The notes under the pieces: generated by a model
Told to the model about the DNA's origin: nothing
Databases searched by the model: none
The model's input: the letters and a program-made list of their open reading frames with translations, nothing else
Position numbers and translations under genes: made by a program
Assembly: GCA_959596495.1 (NCBI GenBank)
Contig: CAUFXK010000001.1
Coordinates: 2,672-66,671, forward strand
From: an uncultured Collinsella sp.
Lineage (GTDB): Bacteria > Actinomycetota > Coriobacteriia > Coriobacteriales > Coriobacteriaceae
Direction of reading: 5' to 3'
DNA: 64,000 nt
Shown: positions 23,339-45,629 of the stretch, one piece after another
Numbering within the stretch: the first letter of the stretch is position 1
Layout of the letters: each line of letters opens with the position of its first letter

Positions 23339-23482
23339 AGCGCTTTTGCGGAGGTTGTTTTGCCTCCAAGGTTCTCCTCAATCGCCAACCTTAATGCGAA
23401 CTTTAACCTACATATGTTTGATAACTAACTGATGTGGAATAATTAGAGCGAACTACCAGCTGAGCGTTATGGAGGATTGAGG

Positions 23483-25609: not shown

Positions 25610-25641
25610 CGTTTAACAAAGTAGTTGGAAGGAATACCGCA

Positions 25642-28071
25642 ATGCATACCCATACCACTGATACCGCTTCGAAAGAGCTCGACGCTCAGCGCGATCTTGT
25701 GCGCCGTCCGCGTAAGCGCATTGCCGCACTCGCTCTTGCCGCCGGTTTGACCGTGGCCCTTACCGTGCCCGGCGCCGTTGTATTCGCTGATGGCTTGGGG
25801 TCGACAAACGGGGCTTCGGCTGCGACCGAACAGGTCGCGACGAGCTCCAATAGCGCCGCGCCGGGTTACAAGAAAAACCAGGTCGTGTACGTTAAGACCG
25901 ATGCCGATGGTAATCGCACGGGCGTTTACGTGGTCAACAGCTTCGAGGCCAACAAGGGCGTCAAGATTGACGACTCCGGCACCTATGACAAGGTGACCAA
26001 TCTGTCGACGACTCAAAAGCTAACGGATGACAACGGGTCGGTTGCCGTTACAGGCCAGGGCGCGCAGGACTTTGTCTACCAGGGCGATCTGGACAAGAAC
26101 ACCCAGATGCCGTGGAACGTGACCGTGACATATCAGCTTGACGGTAAGGATATCGACGCCAAGGATCTGGCGGGCAAGAGCGGCAAGCTCACCATGAAGC
26201 TCAAGGTCGAAAAGAACGCGGACTATACCGGCGGCGATTATGCCGATAACTATCTGGTCCAGATTGCCGGCCAGCTTAAGGATACCGAAGCACACGATAT
26301 TGAGGCCGAGGGCGCCACGGTTGCAGCCAACGGCTCCAACACGCAGCTCACCTACATGGTGATTCCCGGTACCACCGGTGACTACACCATTACGACCGAT
26401 GTTGAGGACTTTGAGTTCGACGGCTGGCAGATTGTCGGCGTGCCGCTGAGCCTTGCCATCGATGTGGACTCAAGCAGCATGGATACGAGCCAGCTCGTGG
26501 AACTCTCTAACGGCATTGCCACGGCCAACAGCGGTGCGGGCCAGGTCGCCGACGGCGCCAAGACCCTCGCAGCCTCGCTCGCCACTGCCAATACCGGTGC
26601 CGGCACGCTGTCCAGTGGCGCTGCCACGCTTGCGGCGGGCACGAGCCAACTCAATGCGCAGGTTCCCACGCTGGTCGAAGGCGTGAGCAGCCTTAATACC
26701 GGTGCCGAGGGCGTTAATGCCGGCGCTGCAAAGCTCAAAGGCGGCGCGTCCGATCTTTCGACGGGCCTGACCAAGCTGCAGGGGAGTGCGCAGGAGATTT
26801 CGGGCGGCATCAGCGGAATTGCCGCCGGCTCTGATACGTTTGTTAATGCGCTGACGCTGGGCAAGCAGGATCAGGAGGAAAACCTTGCCAAGGCGCAGGT
26901 TGCAACCAAGACGGCGCAGGACGCCGTAACCGCTACGTCCGGTAACGCCTACGGCGCGCTGTACGGGCCGCAGGGCCTTACGGCGGCGCTCAATGGTGAG
27001 GGACAGTACCTTGCCGGCGCTCAGCAGGCGCTCGGCGGGGCGAAGCAGGTTGCAAGCGCCATGGGCAACGATGCCGCCAAGACCAACGCTGTAAGCGCTA
27101 AGGACGGCGCAGAGAGTGCCGCTGCGTCTATTGCTGCTGCCAAGGCAGCGGTCGCCGAGGCTCAGAACGCACTGGCGAATGCAGCCGACCTCGATGCCGC
27201 CAAGGCTGCGGCTGCCAAGCTAAGCGAGGCCACGGAGCAGCTGGATGCTGCCACCGCGAGCGCCGGTAGCGCTGCTGCCAGCGCGAGAGCGGCCGCCACA
27301 GCGGCTTCGGGTGCCGATGCGACGGGCCTTACCGCATATCTCGATGACGCGTCCAGCGCCGTTACGGGAGCCCAGGGCCTTAACGTCCAGGCGTCTCAGG
27401 GTCTAAAGGACGCCAAGCCCATGTTTGGCAAGCTTACCGACCAGGTTACGACGTTGGCTCAAGCGGCCGGCGCCCAGGGCGGCGCCCAGGGTGCCGTCGG
27501 CGCGCTCGATAGCGCCATTCAGGGCTACACTACCGTCCAGGATGGTCAGCAGCTGAGCCTGGCCAGGGCCATCGCCTATATGAACAGCGCGATCAACCCT
27601 GCAAGCCCCACGGCCGAGAACCCCGGTCTTGTCGCCGGCGTCGACTCTGCAGCCACGGGCGCGCGCCAGTTGAGCGACGGCGCCACGGCCCTTGCCGCGG
27701 GCACCGATCAGCTTGCCGCGGGCACGCAGCAGCTTAACGGTGCCACGCCCGCTCTCGCTAACGGCGTCTCGCAGCTTAATGGCGGTGCGGCGCAGCTCAA
27801 GGCGGGAGCAGCCACTCTTGCCAGCGGCATGAACCTCCTCTCGTCGGGTGCGGGTACGCTCGCCAGCGGCGCATCCGAGCTCGGCAGCGGTATGCAGGAG
27901 CTTACCGACCGTACGAGCGACCTCGATACCCAGGTCATCAACACCGTTAAGGACAAGATCGAGGAAATGCTCAACCCCAGCTTTACGCCGACGGACTTTG
28001 TTAACGGCGAGCAGGGCGGGCACATGAACCGCGTGCAGTTTGTCTATATGACGGGCGCCATTAGCAAGTAG
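25642..28071 (+). CDS. Secreted/membrane-anchored protein with YhgE/Pip-like X-X-X-Leu-X-X-Gly heptad repeats
   Basis: 809 aa. N-terminal anchor 'RIAALALAAGLTVALTVPGAVVFA', then a beta-rich domain. Two Ala/Gly-rich heptad blocks follow (e.g. GAKTLAASLATANTGAGTLSSGAATLAAGTSQLNAQ; GATALAAGTDQLAAGTQQLNGATPALANGVSQLNGGAAQLKAG). It starts 33 nt after the MMPL gene. Confidence 0.6.
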   Translation: MHTHTTDTASKELDAQRDLVRRPRKRIAALALAAGLTVALTVPGAVVFADGLGSTNGASAATEQVATSSNSAAPGYKKNQVVYVKTDADGNRTGVYVVNSFEANKGVKIDDSGTYDKVTNLSTTQKLTDDNGSVAVTGQGAQDFVYQGDLDKNTQMPWNVTVTYQLDGKDIDAKDLAGKSGKLTMKLKVEKNADYTGGDYADNYLVQIAGQLKDTEAHDIEAEGATVAANGSNTQLTYMVIPGTTGDYTITTDVEDFEFDGWQIVGVPLSLAIDVDSSSMDTSQLVELSNGIATANSGAGQVADGAKTLAASLATANTGAGTLSSGAATLAAGTSQLNAQVPTLVEGVSSLNTGAEGVNAGAAKLKGGASDLSTGLTKLQGSAQEISGGISGIAAGSDTFVNALTLGKQDQEENLAKAQVATKTAQDAVTATSGNAYGALYGPQGLTAALNGEGQYLAGAQQALGGAKQVASAMGNDAAKTNAVSAKDGAESAAASIAAAKAAVAEAQNALANAADLDAAKAAAAKLSEATEQLDAATASAGSAAASARAAATAASGADATGLTAYLDDASSAVTGAQGLNVQASQGLKDAKPMFGKLTDQVTTLAQAAGAQGGAQGAVGALDSAIQGYTTVQDGQQLSLARAIAYMNSAINPASPTAENPGLVAGVDSAATGARQLSDGATALAAGTDQLAAGTQQLNGATPALANGVSQLNGGAAQLKAGAATLASGMNLLSSGAGTLASGASELGSGMQELTDRTSDLDTQVINTVKDKIEEMLNPSFTPTDFVNGEQGGHMNRVQFVYMTGAISK

Positions 28072-30019: not shown

Positions 30020-31399
30020 ATGTTTATCGGAAGAACAGCGGAAATGTCCGAGCTCAATCGTCTGTATGGCACGGGCTCCTTTGAGATGCCTGTGATTTAC
30101 GGGCGTCGTCGTGTGGGCAAAACCCGCCTTATCACAGAGTTCATTCAAGGCAAGAATGCTATTTACTTTCAAGCTCGTCGTACCAATGCAGAGGCAAACC
30201 TGCACGGCTTTAGCCAGGCGATACTTGCAGGCTCGGTTGGTGCTGCAGGCGTGTCGTTTCGTAGCTTTGACGAGGCGCTCGATGCATTGGCCACCATGGC
30301 TCGCACGGAACGTTTGATTGTCGTGATTGACGAGTATCCCTATCTCGCCCAATCGAATCCCGAGATCAGCTCGTTGCTGCAAGACAAGATCGATCACCTG
30401 TACAAAGAGACCAAGCTCATGCTGATTCTATGCGGCTCGTCTCTTTCGTTTATGGAGGAACAGGTATTGGGCTACGAGAGCCCACTATACGGTAGGCGTA
30501 CGGCCCAGTTTAAGATCATGCCGCTCGATTTTACGACGACCCTCGGCCTGTGGCAGAGCATGGGTCGCGAAGACGCAGCGGTTTGCTATGGCATGACGGG
30601 CGGCATTCCTGCATATATCGAGAAAGTCGATCCTACCGTATCGCTCAAGGGCAACATCAAGCGTCTTTTTCTTACCCCTACGGGTTATCTCTTTGAAGAG
30701 CCGAGTAACCTGCTATTGCAAGAGTGCCGCAATCCCGAGCAATATGATGCGATCGTGCAAGCAATTGCTCAGGGGCGCTCGAAGATCTCGGAGATTGCGA
30801 GCTCTACGGGAATCCCTGCGAGCAACGTAAAGAGCTATGTGGATAAGCTGGCGTCGCTTGGGATTGTCGAGCGCGAGCTGCCCCTAAACGAGACGAGCAA
30901 TAAGCGAGCCGTGTATCTGCTGAGCGACCAGATGTTTAGGTTCTGGTACAAGTTTGTTCCGCAGAACATCGGGCTGATTCAAAACGATATGGCCGAGATG
31001 GCGTATAAGCGCATTGAGCCGCACGTATCGGATTACATGGGTACGGTCTTTGAGCTCATATGCAGACAATATGTGTACGAACTCGCGCGCGCGGGCCAGC
31101 TCGATGTGGTTCCGGCGAGCGTCGGGCGCTGGTGGGGGACGGATAATCGCACGCATACGCAGGAAGAAATCGACTTGATTGTTGACGATGGCGAGGGCAC
31201 TGCTCTGTTTGCGGAGTGCAAATGGCGCAATGAACCGGTGGGCGAAGACGTGCTGCAAAAGCTCGTGCACCGAAGCGAGCTCTTTAGACGGCAACGAAAA
31301 AGCTATGCACTATTCTCAAAAAGCGGCTTTACGCAGGGATGTCGGGATGCCGCGGAGAGTAGGGGAGACGTCAAGCTGATCTCGTTTGCCGAGATGTGA
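30020..31399 (+). CDS. AAA-type ATPase (archaeal-ATPase fold) with C-terminal DUF234
   Basis: 459 aa. 'FIGRTAEMSELNRLY', Walker A 'GRRRVGKT', Walker B 'IVVIDEYPYL', and C-terminal 'EEIDLIVDDGEGTALFAECKW' typical of DUF234. Confidence 0.75.
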   Translation: MFIGRTAEMSELNRLYGTGSFEMPVIYGRRRVGKTRLITEFIQGKNAIYFQARRTNAEANLHGFSQAILAGSVGAAGVSFRSFDEALDALATMARTERLIVVIDEYPYLAQSNPEISSLLQDKIDHLYKETKLMLILCGSSLSFMEEQVLGYESPLYGRRTAQFKIMPLDFTTTLGLWQSMGREDAAVCYGMTGGIPAYIEKVDPTVSLKGNIKRLFLTPTGYLFEEPSNLLLQECRNPEQYDAIVQAIAQGRSKISEIASSTGIPASNVKSYVDKLASLGIVERELPLNETSNKRAVYLLSDQMFRFWYKFVPQNIGLIQNDMAEMAYKRIEPHVSDYMGTVFELICRQYVYELARAGQLDVVPASVGRWWGTDNRTHTQEEIDLIVDDGEGTALFAECKWRNEPVGEDVLQKLVHRSELFRRQRKSYALFSKSGFTQGCRDAAESRGDVKLISFAEM

Positions 31400-32708: not shown

Positions 32709-32984
32709 GGGCATCACCTCCCATCGTATGGAGGGCGCTGCCCGGCACATGAACTGCCGTCAACAACAACTATTCTATCAAATCGCAGCTAGAAATACGA
32801 ATATATGTTCGCTTATAATGGGGCATCGGGCTGCTGACTCTTTTAGGGCTATCCATACCGTGTGCAGACATCGGGCGCGGCGTTGCGGTACGTTTCATGT
32901 CCGCACGGGCGCCTATCCTTACGGCAATGTAGCCGCCTATGTAGCTATGTAGCAAGCGGCAGGCAACGGAGAAAGGCCATAACC

Positions 32985-33719
32985 GTGTCAGCTGAAAAGA
33001 CGCCGTGTATCTCGGCTATCGATACGACGAACTTTGCGCGCCAGATTGTGCTGGATTTTGAGTTTGCGCCGGTGCCAAAGCAGCGCCAGCGCCGTGGACT
33101 GCGCAACGAGATTATCGAGGTCGGCGCCGTCAAGCTCGATTACCACGGCAACGTTATGGGCGAGTTCTCGCAGTTTGTACAGACGGAATTTACCGAAGGC
33201 GTTGCGTTTCCCGTCCGCGAGCTCACAGGGATATCGGCCGTGGACACCGCGATGGCCGATCCGCTCTACACGGTGATCAAAAGGCTCAGCGATTGGATCG
33301 GTCGCTACTCCGCCCAGGTGGTTTGCTGGAGCGGGGCGGATCGTCGACAGCTTTTGACCGAATGCCAGGCAAAGCACATCGATTTTTCCGCATTTCCTAC
33401 GGGCTGGGCCGACCTGCAGGCGTTTTACACCTCGATCATGGACGTGGGTAGCCACGGGCGCGTCTCTTTGAGTGACGCGGCAACGTGGTTTGGTATCGAG
33501 TTCGACGAGTCGACGGGCCACGCCCACAGCGCCCTGGCCGATGCGCGTGTAACCGCCAAGTTGCTCAAGCAGATGATGGAGGGTGACTATCACGTGAGTC
33601 CGCGCGTCCAGGAAGTCCGCCAACGGTGGGGGATAGGCGAGCGAACCCAGACGCGCCTTTCCAGCAAGTGCCCCGAGCTGGGTGACCTGCTGCTAAAGCT
33701 GAAGGCGGAGGGGAGGTAG
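32985..33719 (+). CDS. DEDDh (DnaQ-like) 3'-5' exonuclease domain protein
   Basis: Exo I 'IVLDFEF', Exo II region 'VVCWSGADRRQL', Exo III 'HSALADARVTAKL' (H-x4-D). GTG 32985 lies 8 nt after GGAGAAAGG. The upstream part of ORF 32862..33719 is Arg/Cys-rich and unlikely to be coding. Confidence 0.7.
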   Translation: MSAEKTPCISAIDTTNFARQIVLDFEFAPVPKQRQRRGLRNEIIEVGAVKLDYHGNVMGEFSQFVQTEFTEGVAFPVRELTGISAVDTAMADPLYTVIKRLSDWIGRYSAQVVCWSGADRRQLLTECQAKHIDFSAFPTGWADLQAFYTSIMDVGSHGRVSLSDAATWFGIEFDESTGHAHSALADARVTAKLLKQMMEGDYHVSPRVQEVRQRWGIGERTQTRLSSKCPELGDLLLKLKAEGR

Positions 33720-33942
33720 GAGGCTCATTTGGCGACAAGCGGACGGAATGGTTGCGCGAAGGATTCTAGGATCAGCAGCAGAAGACTGCGTTTGGGATCC
33801 TACTCAAGGACGCGCTGACACTCGCTGGGACCAAGCAGGTCAAGAGCGTGGACATCGAGATGGCTTCCATTATCGAAGAGCGGCTTGCTAACATGATTCG
33901 CTGGACGGATAGGCAGAGACCCGTGACGCTGCGTGCGTCATC

Positions 33943-36456
33943 GTGCACAATGAGGTGTATAGGCTGCCAGTGGCGAACTATCCCGACGAGGTTCTGAGCA
34001 ACTGCATCACCGAGATTTTCGAATACTTCTACGAAGAGGGATTTGGCGGCGTAGAGCAATCTGATTTTACGCGTTTGCAGGAGGAAGCTGGTAGGGCAGA
34101 CGAACTTGTTTTTAGTGCTGGCGAGATAGTTTACGCCATGCCCCAACTGCCCAAAGTTACATCTGTGCCGCTGAACGGTAGTGCCGTGTTGGTTGGTTTT
34201 AAGGACGCTCCCGATGGGGAGGAGGTCCTCTTTGATTTTGACCCTCGGGCTGAAAAGGCTACGAAGCTCGACTATGAACTTGCAGCCGTTAGCGGGCTCC
34301 TCACGGGTGCGTTGAATATCCTTTGGCAGAAAGACTTCAACCTAGAGGGTGCCAAAGAGTGGGGCGACGAGAAGGTTGGCAAATTCGTTCTTACGATTGC
34401 CAAGTCTGCGGGTATGACAAAGGCGGATGCAACTCTAGAAGACGCTATTCGCTTTCTAGAGAAAGAGTTTCCTCTTGCCACGGACAAGCTGACTGCCGAG
34501 TTTGGCGGCGGGCTCCAACATCATCTGCGGGATTTCTCGCACCACCCGAGCTTGGTTGGCCTTGCGTGTTCGATCCTCTCGCAATTCACCTGCAAAGGCT
34601 ATGGTACCGATACGGCCGGCCGGTTTGTCGCCTTTGACCTGCCTGCCGCCGCCTTCGATTCCGACTGCCCTCTTGTAGGCAGGAACGTTCCAGAGAAGAT
34701 CGCGTTTGGCACTCTGTTCTGGGCGATGCATCTCGTGAGCGACATGGCGGGGTCTAGTTCAAACCCCGGTAAGGGGACGGGCATTCCCGGCGTCGCGCTG
34801 TCCCTGCTAAAGGAGCTCTCCTCCCTGCCTGTTTTTCAAGACATGCAGATTGCCTATAAGGGCGAGGATATTCGCATTCAGCAATGGATCTCAAAGCTGT
34901 TTAACGGAACGGCGTTCAAAACCGAGGACGGCAAGCCCATTCGCTTCGACCTTCGGACGGAAGTCGGCCTGCTCGATCAAGCTTTAAGCCAGGTGCCAGC
35001 AGTCGTGGCCAACGAGGTTATCGTTCGTTGTCTCTACATGCTTTCAAGGCTCAAGGCCGAGCTGGAACGTTGCGAAGTGAGCAAGGTTTCCGGCTTGCAC
35101 AAGCTCAAGGCTTCGCATTTCATGCCCTATAACAGCAGGGTTCTCACTCGCATGGTCACGGTTTCGAGCACTTCGTTCGTTTTGGTGAATCTAGCGACGG
35201 CGGCGGTCAGGGCGGGTATCGAATGCGAGGGGAACAAGGTCGTGTTCGCTCAGAAGCTCTTCTTGCGAATAAACTACGTTGGAGTTGGACGCCTTGCGTT
35301 TGCCCTCCATGCCGACTGGGGCTATATGGCGGAGGAAATGTCCGAGGCTTGGACTGAGCGCGCCAGGCGCCGCCAGGATATCTTCGATGGATTTCACTTT
35401 TATAGCCTAGATAGAGAAACGACGAGGATTGCCTTCTCGCTGAAGCTTGCCGCCATCAACTACGACTGCGGGAACGAGAAGAACGAAGTGCGCAAAGGGC
35501 AAAAGAGGAGCTGGGCCCGCGCGTGGCAGGATTCGGTCGCGGATGGCCTAGGCATTGATGCAGACGGCTACTTTTTGAGCGAGGAAGATGCGTACGGAGC
35601 CCTTGAGACAGTTTCGCGGCGGCGAGGCGGTAAAGTGCGTGCCTTGCTTGTTGCACAGGAGTTGGTTGAGTTTTGCCCCTATTCGCAGTTAGGAGATGAA
35701 GAGAAGAAGGAATACAAAGGTTTGAAGGAGAGTGGATCTTGGGTTAAACACGAATTTCCCAGGAGACAAGACGCGGTTGATTTGGACGCCATACGTTCTC
35801 TCGAGAAACGTTGCGGGACACGCTTCCGCGAGCTTTCAGGTACATTGCCAAAGTTCTTGGTGGGCGGCGTCATTGTCGTGGCGGCGGCCGTAGGCGCAGG
35901 AGGGGCGGCCGCGGTACTCGCTCCGGATATTGCTGTCGGTATCTTCGGAGGCTCATTTGCCGGCCTTCACGGGGCTGCGCTTGTCAATGCGAGCCTCGCT
36001 GCAGCTGGCGGTGGGGCCTTGGCCGCCGGCGGCATGGGCATGGCCGGTGGCACTGCTTTGATTACGGGCGGCGGCGCCGCGCTTGGTCTATTGGGTTCTG
36101 GCGGCGTTGCCTTGGCGGCATCGATGGGGGAGAACTACGCGCAATTCGTGCTCGTCGAATGTTCGAGGCTCCTTGCTTTTCTTGATGTGGCAACTGACCG
36201 CTGTCCGCATGAAGGGGCCATTTTGGTGCGGAAGGCGGCCGAGGCCGTGCAGCGTAGCATCGCTGGTGTTGAAGAGGATGTCGAGAACGAGAACGGAAAG
36301 GGGGACCGCAGGGATAGCAGGTTGCTTAAGCAGTTGAAGAGGGGTCTTGGGTATTTGACTTCGACCCTTAAGCAGATCGAGAAGATGCAGAGGCGCCTTG
36401 GCACCGCCGGTGAGGGCGAGCCGCTCAACAGCTTGCCGGCATCGGGTGATGAATAG
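33943..36456 (+). CDS. Hypothetical 837-aa protein: large N-terminal region of unknown fold, Gly/Ala-rich glycine-zipper membrane segment, charged coiled-coil tail
   Basis: Long uninterrupted ORF with ordinary amino-acid composition, whereas the other frames are closed. Residues ~637-729 (nt ~35851-36129) read KFLVGGVIVVAAAVGAGGAAAVLAPDIAVGIFGGSFAGLHGAALVNASLAAAGGGALAAGGMGMAGGTALITGGGAALGLLGSGGVALAASMG. I see no Walker A, HNH or PD-(D/E)XK motif. The GTG start lacks an SD, so the start is uncertain. Confidence 0.6.
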   Translation: MHNEVYRLPVANYPDEVLSNCITEIFEYFYEEGFGGVEQSDFTRLQEEAGRADELVFSAGEIVYAMPQLPKVTSVPLNGSAVLVGFKDAPDGEEVLFDFDPRAEKATKLDYELAAVSGLLTGALNILWQKDFNLEGAKEWGDEKVGKFVLTIAKSAGMTKADATLEDAIRFLEKEFPLATDKLTAEFGGGLQHHLRDFSHHPSLVGLACSILSQFTCKGYGTDTAGRFVAFDLPAAAFDSDCPLVGRNVPEKIAFGTLFWAMHLVSDMAGSSSNPGKGTGIPGVALSLLKELSSLPVFQDMQIAYKGEDIRIQQWISKLFNGTAFKTEDGKPIRFDLRTEVGLLDQALSQVPAVVANEVIVRCLYMLSRLKAELERCEVSKVSGLHKLKASHFMPYNSRVLTRMVTVSSTSFVLVNLATAAVRAGIECEGNKVVFAQKLFLRINYVGVGRLAFALHADWGYMAEEMSEAWTERARRRQDIFDGFHFYSLDRETTRIAFSLKLAAINYDCGNEKNEVRKGQKRSWARAWQDSVADGLGIDADGYFLSEEDAYGALETVSRRRGGKVRALLVAQELVEFCPYSQLGDEEKKEYKGLKESGSWVKHEFPRRQDAVDLDAIRSLEKRCGTRFRELSGTLPKFLVGGVIVVAAAVGAGGAAAVLAPDIAVGIFGGSFAGLHGAALVNASLAAAGGGALAAGGMGMAGGTALITGGGAALGLLGSGGVALAASMGENYAQFVLVECSRLLAFLDVATDRCPHEGAILVRKAAEAVQRSIAGVEEDVENENGKGDRRDSRLLKQLKRGLGYLTSTLKQIEKMQRRLGTAGEGEPLNSLPASGDE

Positions 36457-36940: not shown

Positions 36941-39064
36941 ATGAAAGCAACCGAGGCAAATCTACTCGACCTTATGGGCGTGGCGAAGATGCAGTTCGTC
37001 ATTCCCGTGTACCAGCGAGTTTACTCGTGGAGTGTAAAAGAGTGCGAGGTGCTTTGGGATGACATCATGCGAGCGGGTCGTGATGGCGTATCGCACTTCG
37101 TGGGGTCGATGCTTTATATCCCCGAGTCCGAGAGCTCTGCCACGAGCATTTCGCGCGTGCTTCTGATTGACGGGCAGCAGCGCATGACGACGTTTTCGTT
37201 GATGATCGCTGCTTTGGCTGACTATCTGGAGAGCAACCCCGACAAGGCCGGCTTCCTTGGCGATCTCAAGATCTCAGCGCTGCGGAAGAACTACCTCTTT
37301 AACGATGATGATTACAACGGGCTGGCGCGCTACAAGCTGGTGCTCTCGCAGGATGATAAAGAGACGCTGTTCTCCATCGTGTCTGAGTCTCCCATGCCAG
37401 ATGAAAAATCGGATCGCATTGTCGAAAACCATGCATTTTTCCGCGAGAAGATGCGTGGTAAATCATTTGATCCGGCAAAGCTTTGGGCGGGTCTCAACCG
37501 TGTGCAGGTCATCGACACTAAACTCACGGCAGGTGTAGACAATGCCCAGCTCATATTTGAGTCTATGAACTCCAAGGGCAAGCCCCTCATGCCCATCGAT
37601 CTCATACGCAACTATGTTCTTATGTCGCTTCCTAACGACGAACAGACCAAGCTCTACGAGGGCTACTGGCATCCCATTGAGCATCTGTTTGGAAAAGGGG
37701 GCGAGAGCGAGTTTAACGCCTTCATTTGGTACTGGCTGTGGCTCAAGGTTCCCAATAGGCAGCCAAAGGAGAATGAGGCTTATTACGAGTTCAAACGGTA
37801 TTTTACCGATGACTACGACGGAGACACCGAGAGTCTGCTCAAGGAGTTGCGCGAGTATGCGCAAAGGTATGCCAGCCTGTTCCGAGACAAAGAAAAGGAC
37901 GCTGGCCTACGTCGGGTGTTCAGCAGAATCGTAAGCCTTGATGTGAGACAGATCAGGCCTCTTTTGATGCTGCTCTACTCGGTTTACGAGAGAAATAGGC
38001 TAGACCGCAACGCGTTCCTTCGCATCTGCGAGACCATCGAGTCGTTTCTGTTTAGACGCGCGGTTTGCGGCAGGCTTACCACGGGCTTAAACAACTTTTT
38101 TGCAGGCATGTATCGCAACCTGGAGCTTCAAGCCGATATAGAGGAGTACGTTACGGCGATGCTCCTTATCCACAGCAGCGGTATGACTGCGTACTTCCCG
38201 ACAGACGAGCATTTTGTCGAGGAGTTTAAGACGCGCGACTGTTACAACCGCTTCTCCAAAAAGCGCTATTACCTGGAGCGCATGGAAAACTGGCACCGCC
38301 CAAAGGAGCCCATCTCGGCTGACGATTACCAGATCGAGCACGTCATGCCCCAGACGATCGATGATGAGCACGGCTGGAAGGAATCGCTTGGCGAGAGCTG
38401 GGAAGACATCCACGACAGGCTGTGCAACAACTTGGGAAATCTAACGCTGACGGGCTACAACCAGGAGTACTCAAACCGGTCGTTCTCGGACAAGCTCAAT
38501 CTTCCGGACGTGGGACTTAAATGCAGCCCACTCTACCTAAACAAGTCGATCGCCTCGCATGGAAAATGGGGCGAGGAGGAGATTAGGCAGCGTGCGGACG
38601 AGCTGGCGAAAGAGGCGTGTGAGATATGGAAATATCCCAGCCTTCCGGCAGATGTCGTCGACAAGTATCGCCCTTCTCGCGGGGAGTCTGACGAGGCTCT
38701 CGTCTGGACTTTGCAGGAGAATCACCCCACTTTTGCCGAAGGCGGACTCAACCAGAAGCTTTTCGATGAGGTACGCGAGTCCGTTCTGAGCGGTAACCCT
38801 TCGTGGGAGTCCTATATAGCCAAGTACTATGTAGGCTTCAGGTCGGGCAAGCGAAAACTGCATGCCGTGCTAGAAGGCAGGACCAGCAACGGTGGTTGGA
38901 TTGCCGTCGGCCTGGCAAAGAGTGTGGACGAGCTGATTGATCCGGAGGCCATGTGCCAGGACAAGCGCACGCAGGGCGGATTTGGGCCGGGTATGCCGAC
39001 CTATGTTGCACTCCGTAGCGCTGACGATATTCCCGCGGTGCTCGATCTCATAAAGCAGTGCTAG
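36941..39064 (+). CDS. GmrSD-type DUF262/DUF1524 protein (type IV modification-dependent restriction enzyme family)
   Basis: 707 aa, SD AAGGGAG. DUF262 motifs 'FVIPVYQRVYSWSVKECEVLWDD' and 'LIDGQQRMTT'. DUF1524 His-Me finger 'DYQIEHVMPQ…NNLGNLTLT'. There is an extra ~140-aa C-terminal domain. Confidence 0.8.
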   Translation: MKATEANLLDLMGVAKMQFVIPVYQRVYSWSVKECEVLWDDIMRAGRDGVSHFVGSMLYIPESESSATSISRVLLIDGQQRMTTFSLMIAALADYLESNPDKAGFLGDLKISALRKNYLFNDDDYNGLARYKLVLSQDDKETLFSIVSESPMPDEKSDRIVENHAFFREKMRGKSFDPAKLWAGLNRVQVIDTKLTAGVDNAQLIFESMNSKGKPLMPIDLIRNYVLMSLPNDEQTKLYEGYWHPIEHLFGKGGESEFNAFIWYWLWLKVPNRQPKENEAYYEFKRYFTDDYDGDTESLLKELREYAQRYASLFRDKEKDAGLRRVFSRIVSLDVRQIRPLLMLLYSVYERNRLDRNAFLRICETIESFLFRRAVCGRLTTGLNNFFAGMYRNLELQADIEEYVTAMLLIHSSGMTAYFPTDEHFVEEFKTRDCYNRFSKKRYYLERMENWHRPKEPISADDYQIEHVMPQTIDDEHGWKESLGESWEDIHDRLCNNLGNLTLTGYNQEYSNRSFSDKLNLPDVGLKCSPLYLNKSIASHGKWGEEEIRQRADELAKEACEIWKYPSLPADVVDKYRPSRGESDEALVWTLQENHPTFAEGGLNQKLFDEVRESVLSGNPSWESYIAKYYVGFRSGKRKLHAVLEGRTSNGGWIAVGLAKSVDELIDPEAMCQDKRTQGGFGPGMPTYVALRSADDIPAVLDLIKQC

Positions 39065-39067
39065 GTT

Positions 39068-39096
39068 GAAGGCCGGGGATTGGCCCCCCGGCCTTC
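39068..39096 (+). terminator. Stem-loop terminator after the GmrSD-type gene
   Basis: Perfect 11-bp stem GAAGGCCGGGG / CCCCGGCCTTC with a 7-nt loop starting 4 nt after the stop codon. There is no clear T-tract. Confidence 0.55.
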
Positions 39097-39203
39097 ATTG
39101 CCTCAGATTTGTTGGTGGCTCTTCACCGTAAAGCGCATCTGGTGGGAGAGGCTGCTCTTGGTCGGTTGGTGTCGGAATCGCGGGCAATTATTCGGCCTAA
39201 ATC

Positions 39204-39312
39204 CGGAAAAATGCAATATTGGCTGGTATAAAAGTACGGAAAAATGTCGAAATACACACTTTAAAGCTTCGAAAAAGTGTCGAAATAAGCACCAAACAAC
39301 CACGGAAAAGTG
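39204..39312 (+). promoter_or_regulatory. Four direct repeats CG[G/A]AAAA[A/G]TG phased exactly every 33 bp (iteron/operator-like) upstream of the DUF4143 ATPase
   Basis: Copies start at 39204, 39237, 39270 and 39303. The two central copies extend to GAAAAA[T/G]TGTCGAAATA. This explains the periodic 'EKC' peptide in the spurious 5' extension of ORF 39080..40675. Confidence 0.6.
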
Positions 39313-39352
39313 TATCCTAGTGCTAAAACAGCACGTAATAAGGGGTACGCTT

Positions 39353-40675
39353 ATGCTACAGAGAAAAGCGAAAGCACAGTTTGAATCTTGGCTTGCCTCG
39401 TCGCCTAACAAGGCTCTTTTGGTCAAGGGCGCCCGACAGGTAGGAAAGTCATATTTGGTCAACGTCTTTGCAAGCGAATCGTTCGAAAATGTCGTGACGT
39501 TCGACCTTATCGCCGACGCGTCCGTGCGCGATTCGTTTTTGGCGGCAAAAAGCGCGGATGACCTGCTTATGCGCATGTCTATTGCTGCAACGCAGCCGAT
39601 GGTTGCGAACAAGACCGTTGTGGTTATCGACGAGGTGCAGCGATGCCCCAACGTAGTGACGTTTATCAAATACCTGGTCCAGCGCGGCGACTTTCGATAC
39701 ATCCTTACCGGATCGCTCCTTGGCGTTGAGCTCGAGGGCATCGATTCCCTGCCGGTGGGCTATGTCGAGCAGGTCCAGATGTATCCGCTCGACTTTGAGG
39801 AGTTTTGCTGGGCAAATGGCGTTGGTGCCAGCGTGTTTGACATGCTCAGGGGCTGTCTAAAGAATGAGGGGGAGCTTCCCGGCTATCTGTATGACCGCTT
39901 GCTCGATCTGTTCCATCAGTATGTGGTGGTGGGAGGCATGCCCGACGCGGTCAATTCCTTCTTGGCGACGCGCAATGTCGACGAGGTTCGAAACATCCAC
40001 CGCGATCTTCACGCCCTGTATCGCGATGACATCGCAAAGTACGCTCCGCCCGAGCTGCGCTTGGTTATTCGCGATATCTATGATCTGATTCCCAGCGAGG
40101 CCGGTTCCAAAAACAAGCGATTCAAACTGTCATCGATTAACGGTGTCAAACGTTTTTCGCAGGTGACAGATCATTTCCTCTGGCTATCGGAGGCGGGTGT
40201 CGCGCTTCCTGTGTATAACGTAACGGCGCCCGTGGCACCCCTTTTATTGGGGGAGCAACGAAATCTGTTTAAGCTGTTTTACTTGGACACCGGAATGCTT
40301 ATGTCGTCGTATTCCAAAAGGGTCGCCCAAGGCGTTTTTGATGGGGAGGCAGAAGGCCCCTTTGGCATGAATATGGGGGCGGCATTCGAGGGCTTCGTTG
40401 CCCAAGAGCTCAAAGCCCACGGATTTAGATTGCGTTACTTTACGTCCAAAAAGGTCGGTGAGCTCGATTTTGTGGAAGAGACGCTCGATGGGGAAGTGCT
40501 CGCCATCGAGGTCAAATCGGGCAAGAGCTTTAAGTCCCACGCGGCGCTCGATAACGCACTGGCAACGAAGGGCTACGGAATCGATCGCGCTCTGGTACTT
40601 GCGGAATGTAATCTTCACCGCGATGGTGACGTGCTGTATCTGCCCATCTTTATGGCAGGGCTTTTGGAGCCGTAA
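39353..40675 (+). CDS. AAA ATPase (AAA_14) with DUF4143 C-terminal domain
   Basis: ATG 39353 (MLQRKAKAQFESWL…). Walker A 'GARQVGKS', Walker B 'VVVIDEVQ', C-terminal 'GELDFVEE…AIEVKSGK' typical of DUF4143. Confidence 0.8.
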   Translation: MLQRKAKAQFESWLASSPNKALLVKGARQVGKSYLVNVFASESFENVVTFDLIADASVRDSFLAAKSADDLLMRMSIAATQPMVANKTVVVIDEVQRCPNVVTFIKYLVQRGDFRYILTGSLLGVELEGIDSLPVGYVEQVQMYPLDFEEFCWANGVGASVFDMLRGCLKNEGELPGYLYDRLLDLFHQYVVVGGMPDAVNSFLATRNVDEVRNIHRDLHALYRDDIAKYAPPELRLVIRDIYDLIPSEAGSKNKRFKLSSINGVKRFSQVTDHFLWLSEAGVALPVYNVTAPVAPLLLGEQRNLFKLFYLDTGMLMSSYSKRVAQGVFDGEAEGPFGMNMGAAFEGFVAQELKAHGFRLRYFTSKKVGELDFVEETLDGEVLAIEVKSGKSFKSHAALDNALATKGYGIDRALVLAECNLHRDGDVLYLPIFMAGLLEP

Positions 40676-40712
40676 CGTGCCGCCGACTCTTCCGACCCTC
40701 CCTTAGCCCTCG

Positions 40713-41699
40713 CTACTCGTCGTCTCCGTCGTTGGGGTCGCCCTTGAGGGTGTTGATGTCCAGGTACTGGTTATCGTCCTCTTTTTGCTGGGTCTCCGAC
40801 TCCGCTTGGGTGGGGCCGCGGAACAGCTGGAATCCCTCAAACGCAATGGCGCCGAGCAGGGCAATGACAATGGCGATAAAGGCAACCTTGACTGCCTGCG
40901 GAAATTCCGAGAAACGCAGCGACTTTTCCTCGGCGTAATAATCGGCGAAGCGCTCTTCGCCCGTGCTTTTGGTATACGCCGGCGCGGACGCGGCCTCCGG
41001 GTCATATTCCGGTGCAGGCGTGGCGGCGTACGGATCGTTGAGATAATCGCTCGATGCGGTGCCATAATCCTCGGTCTCGATGCGACCGTTGCCAGCATAG
41101 TCATCGGAATAATCGGAATATGTCGCACCGCCCTCATAGTCCGCGGCGCTCGTGTTGGCGGCAAAAAGCGGGTTAACTGGAACGTCGAGCGCCGGCATGC
41201 CGGTAGAGGTCTCATCCAGATCGGCTGCAGCCCAGGAATCGTAGGCAACCTGACGGGCAACGGGCTCATCGAGCCTTGCGACCGGAGGCTTGCGTGCCGC
41301 AGGAACAGGCAACTGCTGGGCGCTGTACATAACAGTGCTGTCGGCCGATTTGCCCTGCGTCGCTGCAGCGAGAAATGCCGCCGTCTCGGACGGGTCGCTT
41401 GCGGGGCGGGGAGCGGGCGTGGGCGCCGAAGTGGGTGCGGGCGTAGGCGCGGGCGTCGAAACAGCCAACTGCGCAGGAGTCGGCGCAGATGCGGTCTTAG
41501 GCGCAAGTGCGGGATTGGGGTTTGACGGGCGAGCCCCACCGCCCATGAGTTCGTCGGCGGTCCACGGGCGATCATTCATCACGTCGTCAAGGCTCAGCGA
41601 AAACAGGTCGTCTTCACTCTCATCGAACATGCGGTGCACATGTCCACCAATTGCCGGAATCAATCCGCGACCGGTGCATGATGCCTTGCTCAACGCCAT
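40713..41699 (-). CDS. Pro/Ala-rich, acidic low-complexity protein with one C-terminal TM helix (hypothetical)
   Basis: ATG 41699 lies after AAGGATGG. Long disordered region (APTPAPTSAPTPAPRP…DYSDDYAG…) followed by the TM helix 'VKVAFIAIVIALLGAIAFEGF'. The competing frame (40703..41575) is Arg/Pro-rich, typical of an off-frame reading. Confidence 0.55.
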   Translation of the reverse strand: MALSKASCTGRGLIPAIGGHVHRMFDESEDDLFSLSLDDVMNDRPWTADELMGGGARPSNPNPALAPKTASAPTPAQLAVSTPAPTPAPTSAPTPAPRPASDPSETAAFLAAATQGKSADSTVMYSAQQLPVPAARKPPVARLDEPVARQVAYDSWAAADLDETSTGMPALDVPVNPLFAANTSAADYEGGATYSDYSDDYAGNGRIETEDYGTASSDYLNDPYAATPAPEYDPEAASAPAYTKSTGEERFADYYAEEKSLRFSEFPQAVKVAFIAIVIALLGAIAFEGFQLFRGPTQAESETQQKEDDNQYLDINTLKGDPNDGDDE

Positions 41700-41822
41700 T
41701 CTGTTCCATCCTTTCGAAATATTAATGACATCGATTATATGGAACTTCCCAAGCGGCTCGGCCTTGGATTCGTGCTTTCCAGAACTCGCGCCCAAAAGGG
41801 GAGGGGCAATCCGGACGAGTGT

Positions 41823-42476
41823 CTACTTGTCGCCGGCCGCCGCCTTGGCCTCATTGAGGTAGCTATAGAAGCTGTATTTGGAGATGCCAAAGAACTCGCA
41901 GGCGCGCTCGCTCGACTTGGAAATGAGGAAGGCACCGCGACGGTCGAGGTAGCCAATGGCACGAATGCGCTCGTCTTTGGTCATGAGTGCCGCGGGCTTG
42001 CCCACAAACTGCTCGCACTCGTGCAGCAGGTCCTCGAGCAGATCGCCGATGTTCTTGGTAATGGGCTCGGGCTCGGTATAGCCCGTGCCGCCGGTGCCGG
42101 TAAAGGCATCGAGCGAGCGCTCAAAAGCCTTCATGAGCGTAATGTCAAAGTTGATGCCCAAAATGCCGACGGGCTTGCCCTCGTCGTTGCGGATAAAGAT
42201 CGTCGACGATTTGAGCAGCTTACCGTCGGTGGTTTTAGTGAGGTACGGCTCGCGGTCGTGTACATCGGTGGCGCCCTCGTGCATGGACTCAAACACGATA
42301 TGGCTGGGGCCGTCACCCAGTTTGCGCCCGCTGACGTGGCTGTTTTCGATCACTACGATGGAGTGGTCTACGTCCTCGGTCTCCAGATCGTGGACGACGA
42401 CTTCGCAGTTGGGGCCAAATTGGAGCGCCAGGCCGTGTGCGAGGCGCTTGTAAAACTCAATCTGTGCGGGGGTCAT
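41823..42476 (-). CDS. YheO-like PAS-domain / HTH transcriptional regulator (copy 2)
   Basis: ATG 42476 (MTPAQIEFYKRL…). 'EVVVHDLETEDVDHSIVVIENSHVSGRKLGDGP' and C-terminal HTH 'FFGISKYSFYSYL'. It is a clear paralogue of 12536..13243 and is divergent from dpaL. Confidence 0.7.
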   Translation of the reverse strand: MTPAQIEFYKRLAHGLALQFGPNCEVVVHDLETEDVDHSIVVIENSHVSGRKLGDGPSHIVFESMHEGATDVHDREPYLTKTTDGKLLKSSTIFIRNDEGKPVGILGINFDITLMKAFERSLDAFTGTGGTGYTEPEPITKNIGDLLEDLLHECEQFVGKPAALMTKDERIRAIGYLDRRGAFLISKSSERACEFFGISKYSFYSYLNEAKAAAGDK

Positions 42477-42595
42477 GGGTACCTTCCTAAAAATTAGTTT
42501 GGGCACACTTTGCCATAAACCACATCTGTTCGCAAACAAATCCATCAACAAGGCAATTCATGACCGTTCGGCGGCGAAAAAGTACCGATTACGGC

Positions 42596-42661
42596 AACAA
42601 ACAATTTGTTAGGTTTGCCAATCAAAAAGTGTGATAGAACAGTGCTAACAAACTTTTTGTT
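42596..42661. promoter_or_regulatory. Two identical-arm palindromes AACAAA-N3-TTTGTT in the divergent YheO-like/dpaL promoter region
   Basis: AACAAAcaaTTTGTT at 42596-42610 and AACAAActtTTTGTT at 42647-42661, with centres 51 bp apart. Confidence 0.5.
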
Positions 42662-42753
42662 TGGCATCCACATAAAAGTTCAGTCGCATGAATGGGAATG
42701 GGCTGAAACGCGTATGCGGGGGCCGGCAAGAGAGGACTTAAGGAGTTCACCGT

Positions 42754-43968
42754 ATGGCCGATAAGATCCAGTGGGCGGGCAACACGATGCCCAAGAGCGA
42801 TGACAAGCACTTGGGAATCATGAGCCTCGACCACGTGAAGAAGGCCCGCGCCTTCCACCAGTCGTTCCCTCAATATACCGTCACCCCGCTTGCCCGCCTG
42901 GACGGTCAGGCTGCGCGCTTGGGTCTGTCCAACCTGTGCGTTAAGGACGAGAGCTATCGCTTTGGCCTCAACGCCTTTAAGGTTCTGGGCGGATCGTTTG
43001 CCATGGCCAACTACATTGCCGACGAGACCGGCAAGGACGTTGCCGAGTGCACCTTCGATTACCTGACCTCCGATCAGCTTGCCAAGGACTTTGGCCAGGC
43101 CACCTTCTTTACCGCTACCGACGGCAATCATGGCCGCGGCGTGGCATGGGCTGCCAACAAGCTGGGCCAGAAGGCCGTCGTTCACATGCCCAAGGGTTCC
43201 ACCAAGCCCCGCTTCGATAACATCGCCGCCGAGGGCGCAACGGTGACCATCGAAGAGGTCAACTACGACGAGTGCGTGCGCATGGCCGCCGCCGAGGCCG
43301 ACGCCTGCGAGCGCGGCGTCATCGTTCAGGACACCGCCTGGGAGGGCTACGAGAAGATCCCGTCTTGGATCATGGAGGGCTACGGCACCATGGCTTCCGA
43401 GGCTGCCGAGCAGCTGCGCGAGATGGCCATCAACCGCCCGACGCACGTGTTTGTCCAGGCTGGCGTGGGTTCGCTCGCCGGCGCCGTGGTGGGCTACTTC
43501 ACCAACCTGTATCCCGATAACCCGCCCACCTTCGTCGTGGTCGAGTGCGCTCCGGCCGCCTGCCTGTACAAGGGCGCTGCCGCCGGCGACGGCGATCCGC
43601 GTATCGTGGACGGTGACATGCCCTCCATCATGGCCGGTCTGTGCTGCGGCGAGCCCAACATCCTGGGCTGGGATATCCTGCGCAACCATGCCACCGCCTT
43701 CGTGTCCTGCCCCGACTGGGTCACCGCTCGCGGCATGCGCACCCTGGGCGCCCCCGAGAAGGGCGACCCGCGCGTCATCTCCGGCGAGTCCGGCGCGGTG
43801 ACCACTGGCCTGGTCGAGACCCTCATGCTCGATCCTGAGTACGCCGAGCTCAAAGAGCTCATCGGCCTGGATAAGACGAGCTCCGTGCTCTGCTTCTCCA
43901 CGGAAGGTGACACCGATCCGGATCAGTACCGTCGCATCGTCTGGGAAGGCGAATACCCCACTTGCTAA
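42754..43968 (+). CDS. dpaL: Diaminopropionate ammonia-lyase (PLP-dependent), YgeX/DpaL
   Basis: 404 aa, SD AAGGAG. '…FHQSFPQYTVTPLARLDGQAARLGLSNLCVKDESYRFGLNAFKVLGG' contains the PLP-lysine motif and matches YgeX-type proteins. Confidence 0.9.
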   Translation: MADKIQWAGNTMPKSDDKHLGIMSLDHVKKARAFHQSFPQYTVTPLARLDGQAARLGLSNLCVKDESYRFGLNAFKVLGGSFAMANYIADETGKDVAECTFDYLTSDQLAKDFGQATFFTATDGNHGRGVAWAANKLGQKAVVHMPKGSTKPRFDNIAAEGATVTIEEVNYDECVRMAAAEADACERGVIVQDTAWEGYEKIPSWIMEGYGTMASEAAEQLREMAINRPTHVFVQAGVGSLAGAVVGYFTNLYPDNPPTFVVVECAPAACLYKGAAAGDGDPRIVDGDMPSIMAGLCCGEPNILGWDILRNHATAFVSCPDWVTARGMRTLGAPEKGDPRVISGESGAVTTGLVETLMLDPEYAELKELIGLDKTSSVLCFSTEGDTDPDQYRRIVWEGEYPTC

Positions 43969-44042
43969 TCGTTGGGGCGGAGTAAATAGGTATCGCTCCG
44001 CCACCTCACAGGTAGATTCCTTAGTTTGAAAGGTTATGAACA

Positions 44043-45428
44043 ATGGCTAAAGAACTCGATTTCGACGCTATCAAGGCTGCTGCTGAGTCCCATCGTGCTG
44101 ATATGACTCGCTTCCTGCGCGCCATGATCTCTCACCCCTCTGAGTCCTGCGAGGAGGGTGAGGTCGTCGCTTGCATTAAGGCCGAGATGGAGAGCCTTGG
44201 CTATGACGAGGTCAAGGTCGACGGCCTGGGTAACGTCATGGGCTTTATGGGCGAGGGCGACAAGATCATCGCCATCGACTCTCACATCGACACCGTCGGC
44301 ATCGGCAACATCGATAACTGGGATGCCGATCCTTATGAGGGCTACGAGACCGACGAGATCATCTATGGCCGCGGCGGCTCCGACCAGGAGGGTGGCATGG
44401 CTTCTGCTACCTACGCTGCCAAGATGATGAAGGACATGGGCCTCATCCCCGAGGGCTACAAGATCATGGTCGTCGGCACCGTCCAGGAAGAGGACTGCGA
44501 CGGCATGTGCTGGCAGTACATCTACAACAAGGACGGCATTAAGCCCGAATTCGTCATTTCCACCGAGCCCACCGACGGCGGCATCTATCGCGGTCACCGC
44601 GGCCGCATGGAGATCCGCGTCGACGTTCACGGTACCTCCTGCCACGGCTCTGCTCCCGACCGCGGCGACAATGCCATCTACAAGATGGCCGACATCATCG
44701 CCGACGTTCGCGCTCTCAACAACAACGGCTGCGACGAGTCGACCGACATCAAGGGTCTCGTCAAGATGCTCGACCCCAAGTACAATCCCGAGCACTTCGA
44801 GGATGCCCGCTTCCTGGGCCGCGGCACCTGCACCGTCAGCCAGATCTTCTACACCAGCCCCAGCCGCTGCGCCGTGGCCGACTCCTGCGCCATCTCCATC
44901 GACCGTCGTATGACCGCCGGTGAGACCTGGGAGTCCTGCCTGGACGAGATCCGCAACCTGCCGGCAGCCAAGAAGTACGGTGACGACGTGAAGGTCTCCA
45001 TGTACATGTACGACCGTCCGTCCTGGACCGGCGAGGTCTACGAGACCGAGGCTTACTTCCCCACGTGGATCAACAAGGAGACCGCTCCGCACGTCAAGGC
45101 CCTCGTCGACGCCCACAAGGCCATGTTTGGTGACGAGCGCATCGGCTGCGAGCCCAGCATGGACAAGCGCACCGGTCGCCCGCTGTGCGACAAGTGGACC
45201 TTCTCCACGAACTGCGTTTCCATCCAGGGCCGCTACGGCATCCCCTGCGTGGGCTTTGGCCCGGGTGCCGAGTCTCAGGCTCACGCTCCCAACGAGGTCA
45301 CCTACAAGGACGACCTGGTCACCGCTGCCACCATGTACGTGGCTGCCCTGAACCTCTACGATCCGAGCAAGGCCGATGGCGACGCCACCGTGTTCCGCGC
45401 CGGTCTGACCAACAACAAGATCGATTAG
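44043..45428 (+). CDS. ygeY: YgeY-family M20 peptidase/hydrolase (selenium-metabolism-linked)
   Basis: 461 aa. '[19 protein letters not shown]…[14 protein letters not shown]…[11 protein letters not shown]' is the typical YgeY N-terminus and M20 metal motif. Confidence 0.9.
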
Positions 45429-45629
45429 TCCCATTCCTCGATTTTGTTGAGCCGGGGGCCGCTCGTGTCCCCGGCACCCCCTGTTGACTTGGGGCCCGCG
45501 GTCGTTATCTCCCATGCTTCCTCAACGGTGGCGGGTCCTCGTCATGGTGCTCTGCATGTTCTAGCCACACGCGCATGCCGGAGCACATCTACTCATTGCG
45601 ATCGTTTCATCTTTAGAAAGGACATTTCC

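Follow-up and report, generated by a model that had tools for sequence, protein, structure and literature searches.

The gene and its family

In a 64,000-nt stretch of DNA from an uncultured Collinsella sp. (GenBank assembly GCA_959596495.1, contig CAUFXK010000001.1, positions 2,672 to 66,671 of the forward strand; here called the window), we analyzed a gene that a first-pass annotation, made from the sequence alone, had described as an orphan candidate for anti-phage defense. The open reading frame (ORF) is present as described, on the plus strand from GTG 33943 to 36456 and with 837 amino acids (aa), and Pfam scans bear out both reported neighbors, an RNase_T/DEDDh exonuclease gene upstream and a gene with GmrSD_N and GmrSD_C domains downstream. 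The A/T-richer third codon positions noted before are also real: the G+C content at third positions (GC3) is 0.64 in the target gene versus 0.84 in the flanking core genes, and the G+C content of the whole stretch from 29 to 43 kb is below that of the remainder of the window. Alignment of close and distant relatives divides the protein into five parts, namely an N terminus, a conserved domain, a linker, a glycine-zipper module, and a tail (Table 1; residue numbers throughout are those of the 837-aa ORF).

Table 1. Features of the target gene and its immediate neighbors, with window coordinates
Feature	Position	Strand	Basis or remark
DEDDh (RNase_T/KapD-like) exonuclease	32985..33719	+	Syntenic in Collinsella only
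Mechanical ORF	33943..36456	+	837 aa, start GTG 33943
Shine-Dalgarno AGGAGG	34079..34084	+	8 nt 5' of the family start position; kept in nearly all of 80 Collinsella relatives
Family start-codon position	34093..34095	+	AGG in the window, ATG in Collinsella relatives
Canonical coding region	34093..36456	+	787 codons plus stop; corresponds to the homologs of 787 to 788 aa
Variable N-terminal region, ~44 to 45 aa	34093..34224	+	Poorly conserved; low-confidence beta strands
BnzB-like all-alpha domain, aa 95 to 482	34225..35388	+	Match to PADLOC PDLC03834; structure model
Invariant motif FGGGLQHHLRDFSHHPS, His/Asp cluster, aa 187 to 203	34501..34551	+	Alignments
Invariant motif WAMHLVSDMAGSSSNPGKGTGIPG, aa 260 to 283	34720..34791	+	Alignments
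Helical linker, aa 483 to 636	35389..35850	+	One of the family's most variable parts
Gly/Ala-rich glycine-zipper module, aa 637 to 729	35851..36129	+	Hydropathy, alignments, PDC-M09A
Charged helical (coiled-coil-like) tail, 108 aa plus stop	36130..36456	+	Structure model; in relatives, covered by the PDC-M09A-like match
GmrSD-type type IV restriction enzyme	36941..39064	+	GmrSD_N and GmrSD_C; variable hotspot cargo

The protein is not an orphan. Its body matches the PADLOC profile of BnzB (PDLC03834) with an E value of 1.1e-31. BnzB forms, together with BnzA, the experimentally validated anti-phage system Bunzi (Millman et al. 2022, 10.1101/2022.05.11.491447). The match joins aa 105 to 293 and 354 to 482 to profile positions 159 to 490 of 504, and the N-terminal ~158 positions of the profile are unmatched by the window protein. 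A word-indexed search returned 1,900 homologs, and an exhaustive HMMER search against representatives clustered at 50% identity gave 1,734 clusters at E≤1e-3, of which 373 reached E≤1e-30; 59 of the 62 full-length relatives that were aligned match BnzB. Close relatives come from Collinsella and other Coriobacteriia, and full-length relatives at 30 to 47% identity from Schaalia, Arcanobacterium, Boudabousia, and Bifidobacterium. When one genome for each GTDB species was scanned, 254 loci matched; the best 80 are all from Collinsella (89 to 99% identity), so the window is Collinsella chromosomal DNA. All locus comparisons within Collinsella given below refer to these best 80 of the 254 loci, and contexts outside the genus come from individual look-ups. 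No family was found for the target protein in Pfam (E≤0.1) and NCBIfam scans, and profile searches of PDB sequences with two alignments gave chance matches only (E above 0.2). We hold the assignment to a BnzB-like family with high confidence.

The first-pass annotation had seen no catalytic motif in the body of the protein. However, the conserved domain (aa ~95 to 480) holds a series of invariant or near-invariant motifs, DKL..FGGGLQHHLRDFSHHPS, W..HL.SDMAGS...PG.GTGIPG, QW.SK.FNG, RFD.R.E.GL, and NE.IVR..Y, which include an invariant His/Asp cluster of the pattern D..G..HH..D..HH ... H..SD..GS ... R.E. The AlphaFold2 (AF2) model of the full-length protein has a predicted local distance difference test score (pLDDT) of 65.7, and a model of aa 95 to 590, built from 108 sequences, reaches 82.1 and shows alpha helices almost throughout, apart from two small hairpins. 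The profile and fold searches, a check proposed earlier for the body, gave a family match in PADLOC and no fold match in PDB or BFVD. With the full-length model, the best Foldseek match in PDB had E=0.36 and a TM-score of ~0.1; with the model of aa 95 to 590, the best matches had E=0.07 in PDB and E=0.036 in BFVD, both at a TM-score of ~0.1. The top matches are unrelated helical membrane or tape-measure proteins and were treated as noise. As far as the tools used can see, the modeled domain would have a fold without a solved relative.

The C-terminal part agrees with the architecture proposed before, a large cytoplasmic body followed by a glycine-zipper segment and a helical tail, all as predicted features. 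The segment at aa 637 to 729 contains 26 Gly and 26 Ala among its 93 residues. It has two clearly hydrophobic helices and, after them, the near-invariant ASLAxxGGGxLAxGGxGMAGGTxxIxGGG. The 19-residue Kyte-Doolittle means are 2.2 (aa 630 to 670), 1.67 (aa 663 to 681), and 1.5 (aa 705 to 725), and (G/A/S)xxx(G/A/S) repeats lie in its hydrophobic helices of membrane-spanning length; of 33 overlapping small-xxx-small-xxx-small matches, 22 lie wholly or partly in the segment. Both the hydropathy and the small-xxx-small pattern are conserved in relatives. The 108-aa tail is charged (16 K/R, 18 D/E) and is modeled by AF2 as long helices with pLDDT of ~80 to 93.

This C-terminal part is not without relatives in the defense databases either. 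The PADLOC profile PDC-M09A is matched at ≤1e-3 by 50 of the 62 aligned full-length relatives (best 3.4e-19, over up to ~200 residues). Homology of the window module to PDC-M09A can be inferred by transitivity through these relatives. On sequence grounds, the family thus appears to be a one-gene fusion of BnzB and PDC-M09A modules, which PADLOC lists under different systems. The first-pass annotation had found no named system to compare the protein with, whereas its body resembles BnzB of Bunzi and its membrane module resembles PDC-M09A. Since a defense database already contains both modules, the fusion is not a categorically new one.

Start codon and genomic setting

A longer N terminus or a frameshift had been considered possible at the 5' end of the gene. 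Instead, the start of the family lies 50 codons downstream of GTG 33943, at 34093. The initial Met of most homologs (787 to 788 aa) aligns with codon 51 of the ORF, and the aligned position is ATG in all 80 Collinsella relatives by a blastn column count. An independent regex scan recovered the site in 79 of these relatives, and in every one of the 79 it is ATG, preceded by the same Shine-Dalgarno region. Upstream of this ATG, in-frame stops at distances of 11 to 60 codons close the frame in the relatives, so the 50-codon extension from GTG 33943 is not conserved coding sequence, and by comparison with the family these first 50 codons are probably outside the native protein. The window alone, against the Collinsella relatives examined, has AGG at 34093 to 34095 despite an intact Shine-Dalgarno sequence, as a strain-specific loss or a sequencing error. 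The aligned relatives indicate that the native start was at 34093 and is lost in the window by a single T-to-G change or a sequencing error.

Because the canonical ATG is AGG here, the window copy may have poor or no expression, or its translation may begin at a different start, either GTG 33943 (50 aa longer) or ATG 34138 (15 aa shorter). One explanation is that this copy is a silenced or decaying allele, whatever the function of the family. The AGG, unique against the 79 relatives, favors it, as do the two remaining starts, since GTG 33943 has no Shine-Dalgarno sequence and ATG 34138, the next in-frame ATG, has a weak one. However, the 787-codon frame is otherwise intact and every family-invariant residue is retained, an error in sequencing or assembly could account for the single T-to-G difference, and translation from ATG 34138 would cost just 15 poorly conserved residues. 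We consider a silenced allele rather doubtful. For annotation, the gene start is corrected and the loss of the start codon in this strain is flagged. A 45-codon ORF at 33860 to 33997 sits in a conserved intergenic leader (median identity of 86.5% across 64 full-length Collinsella matches) and was not treated as a gene. An Rfam scan of 30 to 42 kb had no match, and a promoter and terminator scan of 32.5 to 37 kb gave a number of sites not above that in shuffled sequence.

The Collinsella copies occupy a variable region that is bordered by a conserved xanthine-dehydrogenase-like gene (window positions 20143 to 22920) on one side and two conserved genes (40703 to 42497) on the other. The cargo of this hotspot varies and includes ATPase_2/DUF234 (PDC-S27), SIMPL, the exonuclease, GmrSD, AAA_14/DUF4143 (PDC-S01), type I restriction-modification (RM), and Abi_C genes. 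In other genomes, a relative designated P0283 (locus L095, 5634 to 17506) is embedded in a type I RM operon, flanked by its hsdR and hsdM genes, which also has RhuM and is followed by RelA_SpoT and HipA_C genes, and a metagenomic relative (L007) begins 70 nt after a GmrSD_N gene. The neighbors in Bifidobacterium are HNH_2 and Schlafen-AlbA_2/HATPase_c_4 (SLFN_AlbA_2) genes, or none of these (L097). In Schaalia, esterase and UDG genes are adjacent and a variable AAA_21/RloB insert is nearby; in Arcanobacterium there is no evident partner gene. Mobile-element or prophage cargo around homologs includes helix-turn-helix (HTH), WYL, and serine recombinase genes.

Judged from individual loci, homologs are recurrently sited beside or inside known defense systems in unrelated genomes, and the defense association is real in these loci. 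The defense-island setting put forward from the window is strengthened by the type I RM, GmrSD, HNH, Schlafen-AlbA_2, RloB, and mobile-element contexts in other genera, and we consider a defense role likely. In the contexts examined, no partner gene is conserved across genera, and therefore the earlier suggestion of a single-gene system fits. We conclude that the gene acts alone.

The alternative first suggested, an exonuclease-assisted system of two genes, did not hold up. The DEDDh exonuclease gene lies ~380 nt upstream on the same strand in ~76 of the 80 Collinsella loci, and its product has weak matches to PADLOC DEDDh and PDC-S48. However, it was not found beside homologs in five other genus-level contexts (Schaalia, Arcanobacterium, Bifidobacterium, and metagenomic contexts), and in three Collinsella loci (L041, L079, and L080) Abi_C and a complete type I RM system stand between the two genes. 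In the window the gap is 373 nt and the target gene has a strong Shine-Dalgarno sequence of its own. Because the adjacency is confined to Collinsella and is split by the type I RM insertion in three loci, we conclude that the exonuclease is a lineage-specific neighbor and not a partner; a two-gene system is most improbable. The exonuclease is KapD-like, below the NCBIfam cutoff, and may be an independent defense candidate. Its ORF spans 32862 to 33719, and the protein is probably of 244 aa with a start near 32985, as in relatives.

Further genes in the window were noted. At its C terminus, the GmrSD-type enzyme carries an additional stretch (aa 605 to 706) with a weak match to DUF5655 (E=0.01). 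The gene at 30020 to 31399 encodes ATPase_2 and DUF234 domains with a weak Mrr_cat match, and matches PDC-S27 at E=4e-62. The gene at 39080 to 40675 encodes AAA_14 and DUF4143 domains and matches PDC-S01 at E=8e-167; since the profile begins at residue 92 of the ORF, translation probably starts near 39353. At 23477 to 28071, a transporter gene of the MMPL family (710 aa) and an ORF of 809 aa without a Pfam match have no counterpart in any of 90 related loci and look like a strain-specific insertion between the xanthine-dehydrogenase-like gene and the hotspot. Just past the conserved right border, on the minus strand at 42622 to 45515, are two adjacent ORFs of ~480 aa without a Pfam match and with GC3 of 0.57 to 0.60.

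Other architectures of the BnzB-like domain

Short forms of the BnzB-like domain, of 500 to 560 aa, are very abundant in Firmicutes (3,779 matches). A coiled-coil protein of 380 to 500 aa with a C-terminal membrane anchor is encoded directly after the short form in three independent loci. These two-gene loci (L091, 6001 to 8765; L092, 6001 to 9170; L101, 6799 to 10542), in which the partner has no PADLOC BnzA match, represent an arrangement that is apparently undescribed. In L101 the pair is preceded by a WYL-HTH regulator gene. The C-terminal half of the window protein was also considered as a fused form of the coiled-coil partner, and this was rejected with an hhalign probability below 1%.

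Fusions of the domain occur as well. One relative, P0247, fuses the BnzB-like domain with the coiled-coil partner, and another, P0241, with a BnzA-like region. In a class of ~980 aa, the C-terminal half differs, is apparently soluble, and has no predicted C-terminal transmembrane (TM) segment; the idea that this class as a whole is a fusion with the coiled-coil partner was discarded, being true of P0247 only. Among 29 atypical representatives, we found fusions to Macro (two), microbial PARG (two), ADP-ribosylglycohydrolase (ARH; one), peptidase M48 (two), and OmpA (one) domains. Macro, PARG, ARH, or peptidase M48 fusions were seen in P0121, P0139, P0150, P0259, and P0197; the first three of these match PDC-M09A at 1e-12 to 1e-15 across glycine zipper and tail, P0121 over ~200 residues. 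A Macro fusion (L105) is cargo of a mobilizable element with relaxase, MobC, WYL regulator, and serine recombinase genes. Compared across these architectures, the constant element appears to be the BnzB-like domain, and the varying elements appear to be mostly membrane-associated modules and ADP-ribose-handling enzymes.

Proposed function and comparison with known systems

We propose that the protein is a standalone, membrane-anchored relative of BnzB that would act in defense at the membrane, a composite reading on which our confidence is evenly poised. The BnzB-like head would be the sensing or switching part. In evolution it has apparently been combined with BnzA, a TerB protein with TM helices, with a tail-anchored coiled-coil partner, or with a glycine zipper, and also with Macro, PARG, and ARH domains. 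An infection cue would change the state of the head, the glycine-zipper helices and the helical tail would then oligomerize in the cytoplasmic membrane, and the membrane would be permeabilized or depolarized, so that phage development would stop in a manner like abortive infection. The repeated pairing of the head with seemingly independently derived membrane modules and the extreme conservation of the zipper fit this membrane model. Membrane permeabilization as the effector step is possible, though we put it somewhat below an even chance.

Several points weigh against the proposal. Membrane insertion of aa 637 to 729 is predicted from hydropathy alone, and AF2 gives pLDDT of only 25 to 33 in the Gly-rich segment. 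The window copy itself matches PDC-M09A weakly, with E=0.019 over aa 645 to 711, a low-complexity segment. Its lost start codon adds doubt about the activity of this copy, a lactococcal Bunzi homolog gave no protection against the phages tested, and some homologs occupy fixed chromosomal sites beside ordinary genes (Arcanobacterium, Bifidobacterium L097, and Schaalia). Furthermore, the invariant His/Asp cluster looks, by its residues, like a metal or active site, in which case the head could be the effector and not the sensor.

The last point leads to the main rival explanation, in which the head would be a metal-dependent enzyme (hydrolase or transferase) with a substrate that is membrane-proximal or related to ADP-ribose, the zipper and tail would only anchor and oligomerize the protein at the membrane, and the outcome would be catalysis, not a pore. 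It is consistent with the D/H/H/D/H/H ... H/S/D ... R/E residues being the best conserved across architectures, including the short and ~980-aa forms without a glycine zipper, and with the fusions to Macro, PARG, and ARH, enzymes of one pathway, and to peptidase M48. The ~980-aa class, which lacks a predicted C-terminal TM segment, implies that the head needs no membrane module in cis to function. However, similarity to a known enzyme was found neither by sequence (Pfam, NCBIfam, and PDB profiles) nor by fold. The glycine zipper, moreover, is conserved as strongly as the head, beyond what an anchor would need, and the domain has been combined repeatedly with membrane modules of different origin. 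We consider an enzymatic head unlikely.

It is also conceivable that the protein has no immune role at all and is a membrane or envelope stress protein conserved in actinobacteria, encoded beside a variable region by chance. Its fixed positions with ordinary neighbors in Schaalia (esterase and UDG), Arcanobacterium, and Bifidobacterium (major facilitator superfamily transporter and catalase) would agree with this, as would its presence at one locus in at least 80 Collinsella species-level genomes and its great rarity on viral contigs (five loci among 2.9 million in IMG/VR). TerB-related systems, too, were first described as stress-response genes. A stress protein of this kind is nevertheless quite improbable: one relative is inside a type I RM operon, homologs directly adjoin hsdR or GmrSD in unrelated contexts, others are cargo of mobilizable elements or stand beside WYL or HTH regulators, GC3 is far below that of core genes, and the domain is the signature of the validated defense system Bunzi.

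Going back to the membrane-acting defense protein, a broader reading would make it an unrecognized and widespread single-gene immune system in Actinomycetota (Coriobacteriia, Actinomycetes, and Bifidobacterium), in which the BnzB domain, as an all-alpha fold not described before and with a His/Asp metal or active center, would be an infection-triggered switch that is tied to ADP-ribose chemistry and drives a glycine-zipper pore. This reading is tentative and we doubt it more than we credit it. If true, it would give a first mechanism for Bunzi and for the other architectures of the BnzB domain. Bunzi is validated but has no known mechanism, and BnzB has no annotated domain; our literature searches on BnzB, PDC-M09, and glycine zippers with anti-phage activity found no mechanistic information. 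The family makes the BnzB domain a modular hub with thousands of homologs and several architectures, of which the one-gene, membrane-anchored form is common in gut and oral Actinomycetota and would presumably be missed by rule-based annotators. The absence of a detectable structural relative, the invariant His/Asp cluster, and the occasional fusions to ADP-ribose hydrolases are entry points for its study.

Bunzi is the closest known system. [quoted passage not shown] The window protein shares with it the BnzB-type body, the association with a membrane element, and the defense-island setting. Unlike Bunzi, the window locus has one gene, and BnzA and TerB are found neither in the protein nor beside it. 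No BnzA match was found with PADLOC in the target protein or the five flanking genes, and TerB (PF05099) had no Pfam match at E≤0.1 in the target and none in the five neighbors. A fused BnzA was also sought by a PADLOC scan of three segments of the target at E≤10 and was rejected, with no BnzA-like region seen. The membrane element of the window protein is a fused glycine-zipper module of seemingly different origin. Because BnzA is absent, the window gene falls outside the definition of Bunzi. The rules of both PADLOC and DefenseFinder call for BnzA as well as BnzB, so that presumably no Bunzi call would be made here.

The short-form pair of Firmicutes has the same conserved domain (~40% identity), likewise associated with a membrane-anchored coiled-coil protein, WYL or HTH regulators, and mobile-element settings, but it is made of two genes and its partner has a single C-terminal anchor in place of a glycine zipper. 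PDC-M09, an untested PADLOC candidate for which no description was found in the literature searched, is comparable in its PDC-M09A component (PDLC04406/04407), whose profile of ~280 to 330 aa is matched by the glycine zipper and helical tail of the family. In PDC-M09 it is a separate gene of a multi-gene candidate, whereas here it is the C terminus of a protein of ~790 aa.

A precedent for the proposed mode of action is found in ThsA of type II Thoeris, which has two TM helices and a Macro domain (10.1101/2024.01.03.573942). ThsA has no sequence or fold relationship to the window protein, which has no Macro domain or TIR partner, and the context of the window gene implies no signaling molecule. 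However, a Macro domain also occurs in some relatives of the window protein, and in ThsA, too, a cytoplasmic part that senses a ligand or infection is joined to TM helices thought to damage the membrane. By analogy, this precedent of a sensor coupled to a TM effector fits the membrane model.

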